Assembly: GCA_024277355.1 (NCBI GenBank)
Contig: JAJRVL010000004.1
Span: forward strand, 360,001 to 392,000
Reading direction: 5' to 3'
Length of the DNA: 32,000 bases
Source: an archaeon
GTDB taxonomy: Archaea > Iainarchaeota > Iainarchaeia > Iainarchaeales > 1-14-0-10-31-34
The translations under genes and the position numbers were made by a program. Shown in pieces: positions 21,315 to 32,000 of the stretch. Numbering within the stretch: the stretch's first letter is position 1; each line of letters starts with the position of its first letter. A model generated the notes under the pieces. It did not search any database. It worked only from the letters and a program-made list of their open reading frames with translations, and had not been told where the DNA came from.

Positions 21315-23486
21315 ATGAAAAAAAAATTAATTCTCATTTTAGTATTTTTATTTTTTTTAGTTAATGTTAATGCATACGAAATAAACCTTGATGTAAACCA
21401 AATACAAGATGTAATTCCAAAACAAGAATTCTGGCATTGGATGATATTAAACTGGGATTACACAGGGCCTTCCTCAGGAGACCAAAACTGGCAAACCTGT
21501 GACTTTGAAAGTCCGGATAAAAATTATGGAATAACTTTAACTGAAAATAAAAATGAATATTCTATTCAAGAAAGTTTTGGGCCGACAACAGTTTTTGATG
21601 AGTGTTCGCCTGAAGGTTCAGATTTAAGATGCACTGCAAAAACAAGTTATTTTTTTAAAGTTAAAACAAACAGTACCAGCCAAAATTACACTATCCCAGT
21701 TAACATAAGAGGAATCTGCGGGGTAATTGAAACTCCAACTGAATTCCCAGTTGACATGAATTATGATTATAATTTTACTTTTGATTCAAGTTATGAAACT
21801 ATATTACCTGATGTTAATGTAAAAAGCTGGTGGGGAAAACGTTCTTCTTTTGGTTCCCCAGAAATAAAAGATGCAGTTTTGAAAATGGTTTCCCATGACC
21901 CTCAAAATAAAAATATTATTGATGTTGAATGGATTGTTTCAAATGATTGTCCTGATAAGTCAAGTGTTGATACTGGAATTTATTCTTCTGATGTTAATTC
22001 AACTTTGAATTTAATGTGCAATAAGCCCGGAACACAAATTGTTGTTGTTAAAGCAACAAATCAAGATGGTTATTCTGGTTATAGTGCTGCTTTAACTTAT
22101 TTTTCTGATAATAATGATGAAGTTGAATTTGATGGAGATTATGGTGTTTTAGTTACTTTACCTAATTCAGATAGACTAGAATTATTTTGGACACCTGAAG
22201 AAAATTTTGATTATCGTTTAGCTGAAATTAGTAAATTAAAGAAAACAGTTATAATAAAAAATACAGGGAATGGTTTTCCAACAGAACCAAACAACAATAT
22301 AACTCGGATTAATTCAACTGCTTTTACTTCAGTTTTAAATCCTGATTGCCCTTTAATACAATACAAAGGAGGCGGATCTGCTTTTAATGGAGAAGATTTT
22401 AATATTATAGAAAGAGATTATGCCTTTTTTTGTCAGCCTGGAAACCATAACTTAAAAATTTCTTCAACTGGAAATTATTCTAATGGAAGTCCTTATTCTT
22501 TAATTGATGACTTTAATTTTGTTGTTCCAGATATTAATGTACATGTAATAAACATGAAAACAACTTCTGAAACTTTGCCTACTTATGGAATTATTTACGG
22601 AGAAGACGGAAGACTTGACTTAAATATTGTAATAAATAATTATTCTCCTGAGTTTGTAGGAATAACTGATGTAAATTTATATTATACTGAAAACACAAGC
22701 AATGCAACATATTATAATTCAAATATTACCTGCACTTCAGCTGACATAAATAGTTTTTCTGAAACTGACACTAAATGGAAAATTAATTCTTATTTAGAAT
22801 GCACTGATTTTCATTTATTTAATTCAATAATTAAATTAAGTGACGGAAGCGAATATATTCCTGGAGGAATAACTGTTTTTTGGATAAACACGCCAACAGA
22901 TAAACTTAAAAATGATTCAACTATAATGGAAAATTTATATGATGACATATGGGATCCTAATACAGGTTATGTGTGCAACTGGAAACTAGAAGACTGCAAA
23001 GCACCAGGAGCGGGGAGTTCAGGAAATCAAGCAGAAGGCGCAATTATTTTGCCTGAATCACAATTAATTGTAACTACAGGAGACTTAATTAGATTTTATT
23101 CAACTGTAACAAATGTAAGTAATAAAAAGTTAGGTGCAAAAATAGAACTTGTAATAATTGATTCACAAGGGAATACTGCAGCAACTCTTTCACAAGAAAT
23201 AGTTGAGGGTCTAAGTCAAGGAATTGATCCTTTAACAAAATATGAATTTAATATATTGTTTTATGACACTGAATTCCTAAAAGAAAATGAATTATACACT
23301 GTTACTTCAACTATTTATTGGATGCCTGCACCGGGATTTTATGAATTAGATGAAAAACCATTAAATAACACTAAACTAACTTATTTTTATGTAATAGGAG
23401 AAAGTGCTGTAGAAAATTTACCTGAAACAAATTTAATTGGAATAATAATTATTTTGTTTTCAGTTTTCGTTATTTTAAAAAAATAA
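21315..23486 (+). CDS. large secreted surface protein with C-terminal LPETN-TM-KK sorting/anchor signal
   Basis: 723-aa protein with signal peptide MKKKLILILVFLFFLVNVNA. Its composition is beta-rich, Asn/Thr-rich and glycoprotein-like. The C-terminus is ...ENLPETNLIGIIIILFSVFVILKK. Confidence 0.7.
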   Translation: MKKKLILILVFLFFLVNVNAYEINLDVNQIQDVIPKQEFWHWMILNWDYTGPSSGDQNWQTCDFESPDKNYGITLTENKNEYSIQESFGPTTVFDECSPEGSDLRCTAKTSYFFKVKTNSTSQNYTIPVNIRGICGVIETPTEFPVDMNYDYNFTFDSSYETILPDVNVKSWWGKRSSFGSPEIKDAVLKMVSHDPQNKNIIDVEWIVSNDCPDKSSVDTGIYSSDVNSTLNLMCNKPGTQIVVVKATNQDGYSGYSAALTYFSDNNDEVEFDGDYGVLVTLPNSDRLELFWTPEENFDYRLAEISKLKKTVIIKNTGNGFPTEPNNNITRINSTAFTSVLNPDCPLIQYKGGGSAFNGEDFNIIERDYAFFCQPGNHNLKISSTGNYSNGSPYSLIDDFNFVVPDINVHVINMKTTSETLPTYGIIYGEDGRLDLNIVINNYSPEFVGITDVNLYYTENTSNATYYNSNITCTSADINSFSETDTKWKINSYLECTDFHLFNSIIKLSDGSEYIPGGITVFWINTPTDKLKNDSTIMENLYDDIWDPNTGYVCNWKLEDCKAPGAGSSGNQAEGAIILPESQLIVTTGDLIRFYSTVTNVSNKKLGAKIELVIIDSQGNTAATLSQEIVEGLSQGIDPLTKYEFNILFYDTEFLKENELYTVTSTIYWMPAPGFYELDEKPLNNTKLTYFYVIGESAVENLPETNLIGIIIILFSVFVILKK

Positions 23487-28404: not shown

Positions 28405-28899
28405 TTAAATTTTTTTATTTTGAGGTTTCTTTTTTGTTTTAATTACATCTTTTAATTCTTTTAGTGCCTTTTTTTTCATTGCATTGTATTTTTCGTCTTC
28501 CATAAAAGCATCAGAAAAAGGATCTAAACCATCTTTTTCTACTGGTTTTTCTAAATCTTCTCCAAAATCAAATTCTTTAGTTAAATCTTTTGGAGAACTT
28601 TTGAGAAAATCATCTAATTTCATTTTGCTTTCTTTAGGAGAATCTTTAATTAAATCAGTTACTTTAGCTGAAGGCTTATATTCAATTTCAGTTTTATTTT
28701 CTTGTGTTGAAGAATAATCATAATAAATTCTCCAAGCCATAACCCCTGCAATAACAAAAACAATTAATGCAATAATATAATTAAACGGTTGAATTTCAAT
28801 TAAAAAAAACACTGAAATTAACGCCAAAATAAACAATATTGCCGGAAAAGAATAACTTACTTTAAATTTCATAGAATCATTAATTAGTAAACATTTCAT
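28405..28899 (-). CDS. membrane protein (2 TM) with charged C-terminal tail
   Basis: 164-aa ORF with two hydrophobic helices (FPAILFILALISVFFLI and YIIALIVFVIAGVMAW), then an acidic/Lys-rich soluble tail. The start could instead be the internal Met (MKFKVSY). Confidence 0.5.
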   Translation of the reverse strand: MKCLLINDSMKFKVSYSFPAILFILALISVFFLIEIQPFNYIIALIVFVIAGVMAWRIYYDYSSTQENKTEIEYKPSAKVTDLIKDSPKESKMKLDDFLKSSPKDLTKEFDFGEDLEKPVEKDGLDPFSDAFMEDEKYNAMKKKALKELKDVIKTKKKPQNKKI

Positions 28900-29027
28900 T
28901 TATTTAAATATTCCGCTAAAAAAACAACAACAAGATTATCTAAAAAAAGCATATATTTTAATAGAAAAACAAACAAATATTAATACAATTAATTAAACAT
29001 AATTTTTTGTTGTTGAGAGGGAATAAA

Positions 29028-32000
29028 GTGAAAGTAAAAGGACAAAATGAATTAATTATCGCAGTCGCAATAGTTTTAATTGCTGCAGCAGTAGTAACAA
29101 CACAAGTATTAACCTCAACTGATTCAGGTAAAGCTACAATTTATTTTGCACCAGACTGCCAGGCAGCTGACTGCGATGGAAGCCCTCCTGACTGCGCTGG
29201 AACCTGCACTGCAACAACACCTACACTTACTACAGTGTTTAATGGAAATAAAATTGATATAACAATCACAGGAGATATAGGAAACTTACAAAAAAGAATT
29301 GAAGGAGCCACAACTTGGACAAATTTAAACAACACAGGAACTTTTTATGAAGATTTTGATATAATTTCTGGAACAACTTATGAATACAGAACAAACAATG
29401 CAGGAACAGAACAAACATCTGCATACTGCATGAATGATCCTTCCCCTCCAAATTGTTCTTGGGCTTGCTCAACACAAAGCTGTTATGCTTATTCAACAAT
29501 TTCTTCTGTTACAGTTCCAAATATTCCTGCAATTCCAACAGGATTAACTGCTATTCCAGGAACAAACCCTGGAGAAATCAATTTAAACTGGGATGCAACT
29601 TTAGGCGCAGACTATTACAAAATTTATTATTTAACTAACCCAAAAGATTCTTCTTGTCTTACATGCACTTATCCAACCACTCTTACTAATACATATACTT
29701 ATGTGTTTTCAGTCGAACCTGCAAGCGGATTATATTTTTCAGTAAATGCATGTAATTCAAATGGATGCAGTGAATATTCTTCTCCAATGGTTTTTTCTTA
29801 CCCTAAATTAGGAGCAGAAGCAAACGGACCTTACTCAGGAACAATTGGAACAAACATTACATTAACCGGAGCTGCTTTATTTGAAGTAGGAGGCATAACA
29901 ACTTATTTATGGAGCATTACAGGTGCAGGATGCACTTTAACTAATGAAACAACACTTACTCCAACAGCAAATTGTTCAAGTGAAGGAACTGCAACAGCAA
30001 ATATAGTTATTAATGCAGATAATGGACAAGCAACAGATACAACCGCAATAACTATAACTGCAACAACAGACACTACGCCTCCAATAGTAAATATTACTTC
30101 TCCTTTAGATGGACAAACTGTTTCAGGAACAATTAATTTAACTGCTGATGCATCAGATACAAGCGGAATAACAAAAGTAGAATTTTATATTGACACAACA
30201 TTAATTTCAACTGACACAACTTCTCCTTACGAATATTCCTGGAATTCAACAACTGTTTCAAATGCAAGCCACATAATCAAAGCAATAGCAATAGATCCAG
30301 CAGGAAACACAGCAGAAAACACAATTACAATTCAAGTTGACAATTTAGCAGTTCCTGATACTCCAACAGGATTAACTTCATTACCAGGACCTAATATAGG
30401 AGAATTAACAATAAATTGGAATGCTGTTTTAGAAGCAACATATTATTCTGTATTAATTTCTCCTGATTTAGAAGTAAATTACTATCTAGCAACCGATCCC
30501 ACTTATTCTCAAAATAATTATCTTTTATCAGTTTCACAGGAAAATCCAGAAAGTTTTCTAATTTATTTTAAAGTTATGGCCTGTAATTTAACAGGATGCA
30601 GTTTAGAAACTACCTCACAATATGACTACCTTAAATTAGGAGCAAAAACAAACGGACCTTATACTGGATTAATAAACGAACCAATTACATTAACTGCTTC
30701 TCCTTTATTTGCAGCTGGAACTCCAAGTTATTCTTGGATTATAGCAGGAACATCAAACTGCACTCCAATAACTTCAACTGAACAAAACCCCATAATAACC
30801 TGCTTAAATGAAGGAACTTCAATTGCAAATTTAACTATTACAGCAGACAACGGAACTGCAACAAACACAGCAGATATTACTATTACTTCCACAGCAGACA
30901 CTACTAATCCAACAATAAATATTACAAACCCATCTAATGGACAGACTGTTTTAGGAACAGTAAATATAACTGCTAATGCTTCAGACACAAGCGGAATAAA
31001 ACACATAGAATTTATTATTGATGATTCATCAAAAGCAATAGATAGTTCTTCTCCTTATGAATATTCATGGGACACAAGAACAGAAGCAAACGGAAGCCAT
31101 ACAATTAAAACAAGAACAGAAGACGCAGCAGGAAATACTGCTGAAACAAGTATTACTATAAATATAAATAACGCTTCTTCTGGAATTGAATGCGGAAACG
31201 GAATAATTGAATCAGGAGAAGAATGTGAATTTGATTCAGAATGCAACTACTCCAAAACAAACTGCAATACTTCAAATCAAACTTATGGAACAAGAAGCAT
31301 TACCTGCAGTTCTTGCAGTTGTTCAACAGGAAACTGGAATTATGATTCACCAAACTCAACTTCATACTGCAATAACTGTAATGCATGCGGAGACGGAATA
31401 CAAAACTGCAATGAAACAGCAGAATCATGTCCGGCAGACTTTGGAGGAGAAACAGATAATACGCCTCCTTCAATTCCAACTGGATTAAATGTAATAAAAA
31501 CAACAGAAAACACAATTACATTAGAATGGAATCCAAACACTGAACAGGATTTAAGAAGATACCAAATACTTTATTCAACAACAGCCAATAATTACTCTAA
31601 AACTGAAATTGCATTAAAAACAGAAACAAGTTTGATTTTAACAGGATTAAAACCAGACACAAAATATTATTTTGCAATAACTGCAGTTGACTTAAGTGGA
31701 AATGAAAGTCTTTATTCAAATGAAGTTTCAGCAACAACAAAAAAAGAAACAATAACAACAGTTAAAACTCCTGCAAATTTAACAGCAGAATTAAAAGACG
31801 GAAACATCACATTAAAATGGACTCACACTAACCCAAAACCTTCTCATTATATTATTCAAAGAAAAGGAGAATTCTTTGAAGAAATAACTACAACATCAGA
31901 TAATTCATTTACAGACAAAGAAATCACAAAAGGAAAAACATATGCATATAGAATAGCTGGATTTAAAGACGGAAAAACAAGTTCTTATTCAGAAGAAGTA
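29028..32000 (+). CDS. giant surface adhesin-like protein with class III (type IV pilin-like) signal peptide; FN3, PKD-like, Ig-like and Cys-rich modules; 3' end outside window
   Basis: Absent from the track because it has no stop in the window. GTG 29028 lies behind GAGAGGG, and the frame is open for 991 codons to the edge. The N-terminus is (M)KVKGQNELIIAVAIVLIAAAVVTTQVL. Modules include FN3-like (PTGLTAIPGTNPGEINLNWDA..), PKD-like (ANGPYSGTIGTNITLTG..) and Ig-like (PPIVNITSPLDGQTVSGTINLTADASDTSGITKVEFYID...SPYEYSWNS), plus CGNGIIESGEECE. Confidence 0.8.
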   Translation, partial: MKVKGQNELIIAVAIVLIAAAVVTTQVLTSTDSGKATIYFAPDCQAADCDGSPPDCAGTCTATTPTLTTVFNGNKIDITITGDIGNLQKRIEGATTWTNLNNTGTFYEDFDIISGTTYEYRTNNAGTEQTSAYCMNDPSPPNCSWACSTQSCYAYSTISSVTVPNIPAIPTGLTAIPGTNPGEINLNWDATLGADYYKIYYLTNPKDSSCLTCTYPTTLTNTYTYVFSVEPASGLYFSVNACNSNGCSEYSSPMVFSYPKLGAEANGPYSGTIGTNITLTGAALFEVGGITTYLWSITGAGCTLTNETTLTPTANCSSEGTATANIVINADNGQATDTTAITITATTDTTPPIVNITSPLDGQTVSGTINLTADASDTSGITKVEFYIDTTLISTDTTSPYEYSWNSTTVSNASHIIKAIAIDPAGNTAENTITIQVDNLAVPDTPTGLTSLPGPNIGELTINWNAVLEATYYSVLISPDLEVNYYLATDPTYSQNNYLLSVSQENPESFLIYFKVMACNLTGCSLETTSQYDYLKLGAKTNGPYTGLINEPITLTASPLFAAGTPSYSWIIAGTSNCTPITSTEQNPIITCLNEGTSIANLTITADNGTATNTADITITSTADTTNPTINITNPSNGQTVLGTVNITANASDTSGIKHIEFIIDDSSKAIDSSSPYEYSWDTRTEANGSHTIKTRTEDAAGNTAETSITININNASSGIECGNGIIESGEECEFDSECNYSKTNCNTSNQTYGTRSITCSSCSCSTGNWNYDSPNSTSYCNNCNACGDGIQNCNETAESCPADFGGETDNTPPSIPTGLNVIKTTENTITLEWNPNTEQDLRRYQILYSTTANNYSKTEIALKTETSLILTGLKPDTKYYFAITAVDLSGNESLYSNEVSATTKKETITTVKTPANLTAELKDGNITLKWTHTNPKPSHYIIQRKGEFFEEITTTSDNSFTDKEITKGKTYAYRIAGFKDGKTSSYSEEV
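29514..31187 (+). repeat. intragenic tandem duplication, 2 x ~837 nt (FN3-PKD-Ig module triplet)
   Basis: Unit 1 starts at GTTCCAAATATTCCTGCAATTCCAACAGGATTAACT (29514). Unit 2 starts at GTTCCTGATACTCCAACAGGATTAACT (30351). The units are colinear at protein level throughout and visibly similar at DNA level, e.g. CTTAAATTAGGAGCA(G/A)AA(G/A)CAAACGGACCTTA. Confidence 0.75.

Follow-up and report, generated by a model that had tools for sequence, protein, structure and literature searches.

The window examined here is a stretch of 32,000 nucleotides (C2:360001-392000) from the 1.13-Mb genome of a DPANN archaeon, which is 96% complete and has a GC content of 28%. At its end begins the gene of a large surface protein, called the adhesin in the following. 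The protein is an exported, disulfide-rich rod of the 40-nm class that is composed of about ten Ig/FN3-type beta-sandwich domains and carries a transmembrane (TM) helix at the C-terminus. Its N-terminus holds only a mimic of the site at which prepilin peptidases cut (K-G↓Q, the arrow marking the putative cleavage point), with no pilin head behind it and with a conserved anchor at the opposite end of the chain. The explanation that we favour, while giving it slightly less than an even chance, is a lineage-restricted, C-terminally anchored cell-surface protein whose leader is trimmed by an A24 peptidase and whose N-terminal helix is retained, and which is not a pilus subunit.

DPANN archaea rely on contact with other cells, and little is known of the devices by which they attach; the adhesin is a candidate contact or spacer fibril of one such lineage. 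It further shows how far calls made from sequence can be trusted: K-G↓Q at the start of a protein is not sufficient for a pilin, and a C-terminal anchor together with a missing pilin head alters the mechanism. Large archaeal proteins with class III (prepilin-type) signals are known or predicted (PMC2910488, PMC4371748, PMC4858521). If the leader is cut by a prepilin peptidase, the known non-pilin substrates would be extended to a doubly anchored adhesin, and the signal type would have switched between sister genera. If it is not cut, the adhesin would be an ordinary C-terminally anchored Ig/FN3 surface protein.

Gene, ectodomain and C-terminal anchor

The reading frame of the adhesin is free of stop codons from position 29007 to the end of the window. 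In the first-pass annotation the gene was seen to run past the window, and the contig indeed extends it to C2:389028-392168, corresponding to 1046 amino acids and a stop codon 168 nucleotides beyond the window. The GTG at 29028 had been chosen as start codon, and this choice agrees with a Shine-Dalgarno (SD)-like GAGGG on the forward strand (29017..29021), 7 nucleotides upstream. Its GAGG matches the SD consensus GGAGG in four to five bases, the 16S rRNA of this genome having the 3' end GGATCACCTCCTT. Three in-frame TTG codons (29007, 29010 and 29013) lie upstream of the GAGGG and have no SD. The concern that one of them might be the true start and destroy the short leader is further relieved by the leader that would result, MLLRGNKVKVKG, which with 12 residues is short and basic all the same. 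In five relatives the start codon is located 3-7 nucleotides behind a G-rich SD-like run and 3-9 codons ahead of K-G; these runs are GGGGAG in two cases and merely GGG or GG in the rest.

Two Big_7 (E 2.9e-40) and three fn3 domains (E 5e-21) were detected by Pfam. An AlphaFold2 model built on an alignment of 7 sequences shows a string of about ten beta-sandwich domains with a mean predicted local distance difference test score (pLDDT) of 70, confidence being low at residues 1-51, in a Cys-rich module (716-764) and in the C-terminal tail. The ectodomain, encoded like all parts of the adhesin on the forward strand, opens with a beta-sandwich between two 4-Cys stretches (29136..29522, residues 37-165; AlphaFold2 strands 61-123, pLDDT 74-85). 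It continues with a duplicated three-domain unit of 828 nucleotides, whose two copies share 70% of their nucleotides and 49% of their amino acids. Unit 1 (29523..30350, residues 166-441) contains an FN3-like domain, a second beta-sandwich and a Big_7 Ig-like domain (352-419), and unit 2 (30351..31178, residues 442-717) contains the same three domains, as deduced from direct DNA repeats spaced 828 nucleotides apart, Pfam and AlphaFold2. The Cys-rich module (31179..31457; 12 Cys, CGNG...GEEC...) is the best-conserved part of the family, with invariant Cys columns in the alignment. It is followed by two FN3 domains (31458..32000, residues 811-991; fn3 at 816-901 and a second copy), in which the window ends; beyond it lie a 4-Cys stalk and the terminal TM helix WGIGATIVVISAALAYVFFTFNI.

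Altogether the adhesin has 34 Cys and 27 N-x-S/T sequons for N-glycosylation, as expected of an extracellular protein, and the rod is probably glycosylated. Among the modules that had been proposed on first inspection, the Ig-like, FN3 and Cys-rich ones are borne out by Pfam, AlphaFold2 and Cys counts; the PKD-like ones match no PKD model. A Foldseek search with the full model returned generic Ig/FN3 arrays only (titin/MyBP-C, contactin, the neck of the GhpA grappling hook and cytokine receptors), and no pilin was found among the 50 best matches listed. With the bacterial Ig-like Big_7/FN3 repeat surface proteins and with structural matches such as titin/MyBP-C, contactin and the GhpA neck, the adhesin shares the same beads-on-a-string Ig/FN3 array. 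This likeness exists at the level of domains only, whereas true orthologues of the adhesin are limited to one archaeal family.

The protein ends with ...NLLQWGIGATIVVISAALAYVFFTFNI, so that the chain terminates in the TM helix. A single C-terminal TM helix behind an extracellular domain, the hallmark of a type I surface protein, is thus present. The helix is kept in all relatives and is nearly invariant within the genus (WGIGAAIIVVSAALAYVFFTFDI), in proteins that otherwise share ~43% of their residues. Since 33% of the codon pairs that specify the same residue over this helix differ synonymously, the constraint acts on the protein, and a DNA-level constraint exerted by the start of the downstream gene is ruled out as the cause. 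Among the ~20 class-III-like candidates of the genome, a C-terminal TM helix occurs only in the adhesin and in two probable polytopic membrane proteins, which are likely false positives. None of the recognisable pilin-like proteins carries one, including a large 731-residue protein that begins with MKG↓QASVE.

Unlike its outgroup homologues and a class of LPETN proteins, the adhesin (...FTFNI) has no basic tail, and it therefore lacks the complete tripartite signal of archaeosortase/exosortase substrates (short motif, TM helix, basic cluster). In the LPETN class, seven other surface proteins (one at 23418-23486 of the window, and six genes on contigs C1, C2, C3 and C10) combine LPETN with a TM helix of ~17 residues and a K-rich tail, which ends with KK(K) in six of them and with -NRK in one. 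Two small archaeosortase-like (Exosortase_EpsH) proteins are encoded in the genome (C3:12061-12486 and C10:91974-92459) and no sortase was found in it; LPETN proteins and archaeosortase-like genes together look like an LPETN-CTERM sorting class. In one relative a small archaeosortase-like gene is found 1.5 kb downstream of the adhesin, whose TM helix might then be the sorting signal of its product. This possibility was considered and proved uninformative: every one of the 9 family genomes has the gene, one of them lacking the adhesin, and in the present genome the two are unlinked.

Prepilin-type features of the N-terminus

The full N-terminus reads MKVKG↓QNELIIAVAIVLIAAAVVTTQVL TSTDSGKA. The GTG start opens a basic 5-residue leader, MKVKG (29028..29042), whose last two residues, K and G, would occupy positions -2 and -1 of a putative site for the prepilin peptidase. 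Gln at +1, Asn at +2 and Glu at +3 begin the next segment (29043..29111), which contains an uncharged hydrophobic helix of ~20 residues and leads into the polar linker TSTDSGKA (29112..29135). These features are as they had been described at the outset: a short basic leader ending in K-G, Gln at +1, a nearby Glu and a hydrophobic helix of ~20 residues. Across ten sequences from the genus clade, the residues K-2 and G-1 never vary (10/10), Q+1 and E+3 occur in 9/10 each, and position +2 is free; the leaders, MKG, MKVKG, MNNIKG and MKLNTKMKG among them, are 3-9 residues long. Conservation is highest at the site and over roughly the first 10 residues of the helix, being moderate from +4 to +14 and at background level thereafter, a gradient which, as read from this alignment, is that of pilins and not of cleaved Sec signals. 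In one genome alone, a K-G↓Q...E motif could be due to chance. As K-G, Q and E are kept in relatives that are only ~43% identical, with synonymous codon changes at the conserved site (GGA/GGC, CAA/CAG), they represent more than a coincidence.

Class III cleavage requires as a minimum a short leader with a charged residue at -2 and G/A/S at -1, and a hydrophobic stretch behind it (PMC4371748, PMC3387779). All of this is present in the adhesin and in 10/10 genus relatives, and is missing from the homologues of genera g3 and g4. Undoubted pilins of this genome also begin with MKG↓Q.... Its Sec signals are made of MKK, an F/L-rich core of 10-14 residues and VNA/VSA, and their owners often end with LPETN-TM-KKK; the A/V/I-rich core of ~20 residues in the adhesin is unlike these signals.

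The genome has two intact A24 prepilin peptidase genes. One product (C2:521119, 377 amino acids) is EppA-like, with a weak full-length alignment to EppA and an Arc_PepC domain, and its gene sits in a pilus operon beside five tiny DUF361 pilins; the other (C11, 279 amino acids) is FlaK-like. EppA is an enzyme that requires Gln at +1 (PMC4371748). The genome further contains six secretion ATPases and about five TadC pairs, with at least five pilus loci, so that the class III proposal does not fail for want of a prepilin peptidase or of pilus machinery, as had been feared. The accompanying statement that substrates of these peptidases are typically small pilins was incomplete, since the known or predicted archaeal substrates also include sugar-binding proteins, proteases and pilin-like proteins of large size (PMC2910488, PMC4371748).

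Several results weigh against a class III signal. PF04021 (threshold 23.7 bits) gave no match at E<=10 with the first 40 residues, the test that had been recommended, or with the first 47, and a six-frame search of the genome with the same model yielded 14 other sites and not the adhesin. The only hit of Pfam and NCBIfam models on the N-terminus was a meaningless match to N_methyl (E 4.4). A hidden Markov model (HMM) built from 16 canonical pilin N-termini of this genome recovered its 16 pilins at 28-36 bits and did not recover the adhesin. When an offset of 2 residues was introduced, which moves the Glu to +5, the ten relatives remained at <=10.7 bits and the query at 6.2, with Sec controls at 2-4; as these scores are still low, the idea that a canonical DUF361 signal has lost 2 codons finds no support beyond K-G-Q...E. 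The motif QxSxExxxL, in which Gln stands at +1 and Glu at +5 (PMC2910488, PMC4371748), is missing, because the adhesin reads Q-N-E-L-I and has its Glu at +3; the canonical pilins of this genome show Q-x-[STA]-x-E in 15/16 cases and an Asp at +5 in the remaining one. The FlaFind 1.2 motif, [KRDE][GA][ALIFQMVED][ILMVTAS] before a hydrophobic H-domain (PMC4307647), is passed by 6/10 genus relatives (KGQT, KGQS, KGQA and KGET) and is failed by KGQN of the query at Asn +2, though the H-domain is there.

Homologues from sister genera (g3 and g4) point in the same direction. They have no Gly at -1 (MNLRIPWELF..., MNESLPVKLLL... and MKVDKLQEALI...) and retain a helix of ~22 residues followed by P-x-G-K-A, which suggests that the ancestral signal was probably an ordinary Sec signal or anchor; the gain of K-G-Q-x-E coincides in the genus with the change of the C-terminal helix. 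To our knowledge, the combination of a class III signal with a C-terminal TM anchor is without precedent.

The closest comparison for the cleavage site is offered by the EppA-processed DUF361/PF04021 pilins of Methanococcus maripaludis (EpdA-E; sites KGQ[VLI]; PMC4371748). The adhesin has in common with them a leader that is short and basic, the K-G↓Q site, a Glu soon after it and a hydrophobic helix of ~20 residues, and an EppA-like peptidase is encoded in its genome. It differs by the Glu at +3 instead of +5, by the absence of QxSxExxxL and of a PF04021 match, and by having, in place of a pilin head, ~1000 residues of Ig/FN3 domains and a C-terminal TM helix, outside any pilus locus. The class III signal claimed in the first-pass annotation thus stands as far as a genus-conserved K-G↓Q...E, distinct from the Sec signals of the genome, is concerned, and falls short on PF04021, the pilin HMM, the FlaFind motif and the Gly of the sister genera. 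From the sequence, the chance that an A24 prepilin peptidase cuts the leader may be put at about even or just below.

Processing, membrane anchoring and the pilus question

In a pilin module, the N-terminal alpha-1 helix is long and rests against a head made of a beta-sheet (PMC8179133). In the AlphaFold2 model of the adhesin, a helix is seen at residues 11-25 only, with low confidence, and is followed by coil (26-60) and then by an independent beta-sandwich; there is no alpha-1C and no pilin head. The sequence after the N-terminal helix is TSTDSGKATIYFAPDCQAADCDGSPPDC, rich in Gly, Pro and Cys. Prediction of the structure of the helix and first domain, which had been advised as a check on a pilus-tip or pilus-integrated adhesin, therefore speaks against this proposal, and so do the conserved C-terminal TM anchor and the absence of adjacent pilus genes. 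Processing of a giant pilin-like adhesin and its incorporation into the tip or shaft of a type IV pilus would be consistent with the K-G↓Q motif and the hydrophobic helix, with a genome that is rich in pilus loci and includes the 731-residue MKG↓QASVE protein, and with the modular pilins known in bacteria (PMC8179133). The C-terminal helix, however, would keep such a protein in the membrane, the canonical large pilin-like proteins of this genome are without one, the Glu has moved from +5 to +3 and the gene is neither in nor near a pilus operon in any relative. The modular type IV pilins PilB and PilC of Streptococcus sanguinis (PMC8179133) likewise have a prepilin-like N-terminus followed by adhesion-type domains, but they possess a full pilin module, have no C-terminal TM helix and are usually encoded in pilus operons, none of which applies to the adhesin. 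A pilus-borne adhesin is accordingly very improbable, and the protein is taken to be neither a pilus subunit nor a tip adhesin.

An alternative is an ordinary type I surface protein with a Sec signal that is cut by signal peptidase I (SPase I) near G-K-A, after residue 36, so that the C-terminal helix is the sole anchor and K-G-Q-x-E is a conserved n-region. The SPase I rule of small residues at -3 and -1 fits the query, in which -3 Gly, -1 Ala and +1 Thr (G-K-A|T) form an acceptable site, and the genome has a gene for a Sec11-type SPase I. P-x-G-K-A lies ~28 residues past the n-region and is kept throughout the family, including the outgroups without K-G, and the class III profiles fail on the adhesin. 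The design of an SPase I signal with a C-terminal TM anchor is standard in archaea (PMC3387779), and a classical Sec signal is likewise joined to an anchor at the C-terminus in a 369-residue FN3 protein that occupies the genomic slot of the adhesin in another genome of the family (G017). The hydrophobic core, however, is of ~20 residues and A/V/I-rich, compared with 10-14 F/L-rich residues in the Sec signals of this genome, and an unfavourable Pro comes next after G-K-A, at +1, in 5/13 relatives. The linker with its G-K-A could be an SPase I site (small residues at -3/-1) or else the remnant of an FN3-type 'PTG' linker. As a motif of linkers or of FN3 starts, 'PTG' occurs repeatedly; it is present in duplicate in G012 and in P0208, in the latter leading directly into FN3, and P-x-G-K-A therefore need not be a cleavage site. 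The invariant K-G and the near-invariant Q and E would also be left without a reason. The Sulfolobus S-layer anchor and oligopeptide-binding proteins, which are SPase I substrates with a C-terminal TM helix (PMC3387779), resemble the adhesin in their large Cys-/glycan-rich ectodomain, stalk and single C-terminal TM helix; the adhesin departs from them by its atypical N-terminal signal (K-G↓Q, 20-residue core) and by a nearly invariant C-terminal helix without basic tail. On balance, cleavage by SPase I is rather unlikely.

The N-terminal helix might also be a signal anchor that is not cleaved, in which case the protein would be looped and held at both ends, with K-G-Q-x-E and the C-terminal helix contacting a partner in the membrane. 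Both termini changed jointly in the genus, K-G-Q-x-E being gained as the C-terminal helix became nearly invariant and lost its basic tail. The TM helix of the neighbouring gene product dn102 is likewise nearly invariant, and unprocessed Sec signals can act as N-terminal anchors (PMC3387779). This arrangement is judged unlikely, since A24 peptidases, of which the genome has two, cut at a K-G of this kind on the cytoplasmic side of a TM helix, and since the neighbours are found without the adhesin in other genera and are hence not obligate partners. Slightly less credence still is given to a double-ended protein, a true prepilin-peptidase substrate that is also C-terminally anchored, whose N-terminal helix would dock with Glu +3 in the base or platform of a type IV pilus while its tail stays in the membrane. 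Such a protein would tether a pilus machine or fibre to an adhesive rod of 40 nm, and would mean that a Sec-type surface protein turned prepilin-type within one genus; we know of no described class III protein that is double-ended in this way.

Under the favoured explanation, a trimmed and C-terminally anchored surface protein, the adhesin would act as a spacer or an adhesin-like fibril, with its C-terminal helix as the tether to the cell membrane. The export signal would have taken an EppA-type prepilin form in this genus, with a leader of 3-9 residues, K-G↓Q, an early Glu and a helix of 20 residues. One of the two A24 peptidases would remove the leader at K-G↓Q, a step with about equal chances of being right or wrong. 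The N-terminal helix would then not leave the membrane and would serve there as another anchor or as a docking handle, in the manner of the class-III-signal proteins of the Sulfolobus bindosome. These sugar-binding proteins, which are PibD substrates, belong to the known non-pilin class III substrates (PMC2910488, PMC3387779), and being extracellular and held in the membrane by their N-terminal helix they are the closest functional analogy for this end of the adhesin. They are solute-binding, need the Bas assembly system and have no C-terminal TM helix, whereas processing of the adhesin is putative.

Family distribution, gene neighbourhood and other loci

Among species-representative genomes, orthologues were found in 6/8 genomes of the window's own family and in 0/206 other genomes of the class at E<=1e-40. 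The true orthologues comprise P0002-P0006, with 43-47% identity over 58-68% of the length, as well as P0150, P0160, P0172 and P0208. A search of the representative library with the Cys-rich and FN3 part was swamped by unrelated FN3 giants and added only two family members. In the assembly GCA_964397185.1 (L030:1420-10910) the adhesin is tandemly duplicated, with 1163 and 1452 amino acids, both copies beginning with MKG↓Q...; the small neighbouring genes do not flank this pair, and 1.5 kb downstream of it there is an orthologue of the archaeosortase-like gene of C10.

Upstream of the adhesin, on the reverse strand, up164 (28405..28899) encodes a divergent membrane protein with 2 TM helices and a K/E/D-rich cytoplasmic tail, which matches no Pfam or NCBIfam family. 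Downstream follow the small co-directional genes dn102 and dn76 (C2:392171-392708, equivalent to window positions 32171-32708), the former starting 2 nucleotides after the adhesin stop. The dn102 product has a TM helix and a 4-Cys ectodomain, with an almost invariant TM/juxtamembrane stretch (GFIAGFFSLIYLSSTGNLLLELNQKPC), and that of dn76 a signal or anchor and a twin CX3C arrangement. A prefoldin/exosome/proteasome superoperon comes next, and the order up164-adhesin-dn102-dn76-superoperon is kept in four genus relatives with recovered loci. Pilus genes were not found beside the adhesin in this genome or in any relative, the pilus loci being located elsewhere.

All nine genomes of the family contain up164, dn102 and dn76, with or without the adhesin. 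Only in the window's genus does the adhesin stand between up164 and dn102; in G017 this slot is taken by the 369-residue FN3 protein, and in G018 and G016 it is empty. A role of the small membrane proteins as obligate partners is weakened by their occurrence without the adhesin in other genera, and gene order would therefore make up164, dn102 and dn76 co-expressed neighbours here, not proven partners. In G011, a genus member that was scored as lacking the adhesin, dn102 (G011:C32:108-386) and up164 (G011:C18:1049-1519) each lie at the start of a contig, and an assembly gap, not true absence, probably accounts for the missing repetitive adhesin gene.

Further surface loci of the genome were recorded along the way. 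The pilus operon at C2:516-523 kb encodes an ATPase, two TadC proteins, a tandem array of five very small DUF361-type pilins (55-81 amino acids from stop to stop, with N-termini like MDNKA↓QGALEYLLLIGG), the EppA-like 377-residue A24 peptidase and two further pilin-like proteins. A bacterial-style prepilin motif opens two large proteins, KKG↓FTLFTALVSFVLILL at C10:100942 (open reading frame of 573 amino acids) and NKG↓FTFTLDSILALLIV at C9:48226 (915 amino acids), so that at least two prepilin-like styles of N-terminus exist besides the DUF361 style. At C10:93-125 kb, three paralogous proteins of ~2400 amino acids begin with a cytoplasmic N-terminal segment of ~45 residues (M.LK[ED][IV]YS.IE.KYY...) that is followed by a single TM helix, and their genes adjoin an archaeosortase-like gene and that of a 760-residue secretion ATPase.

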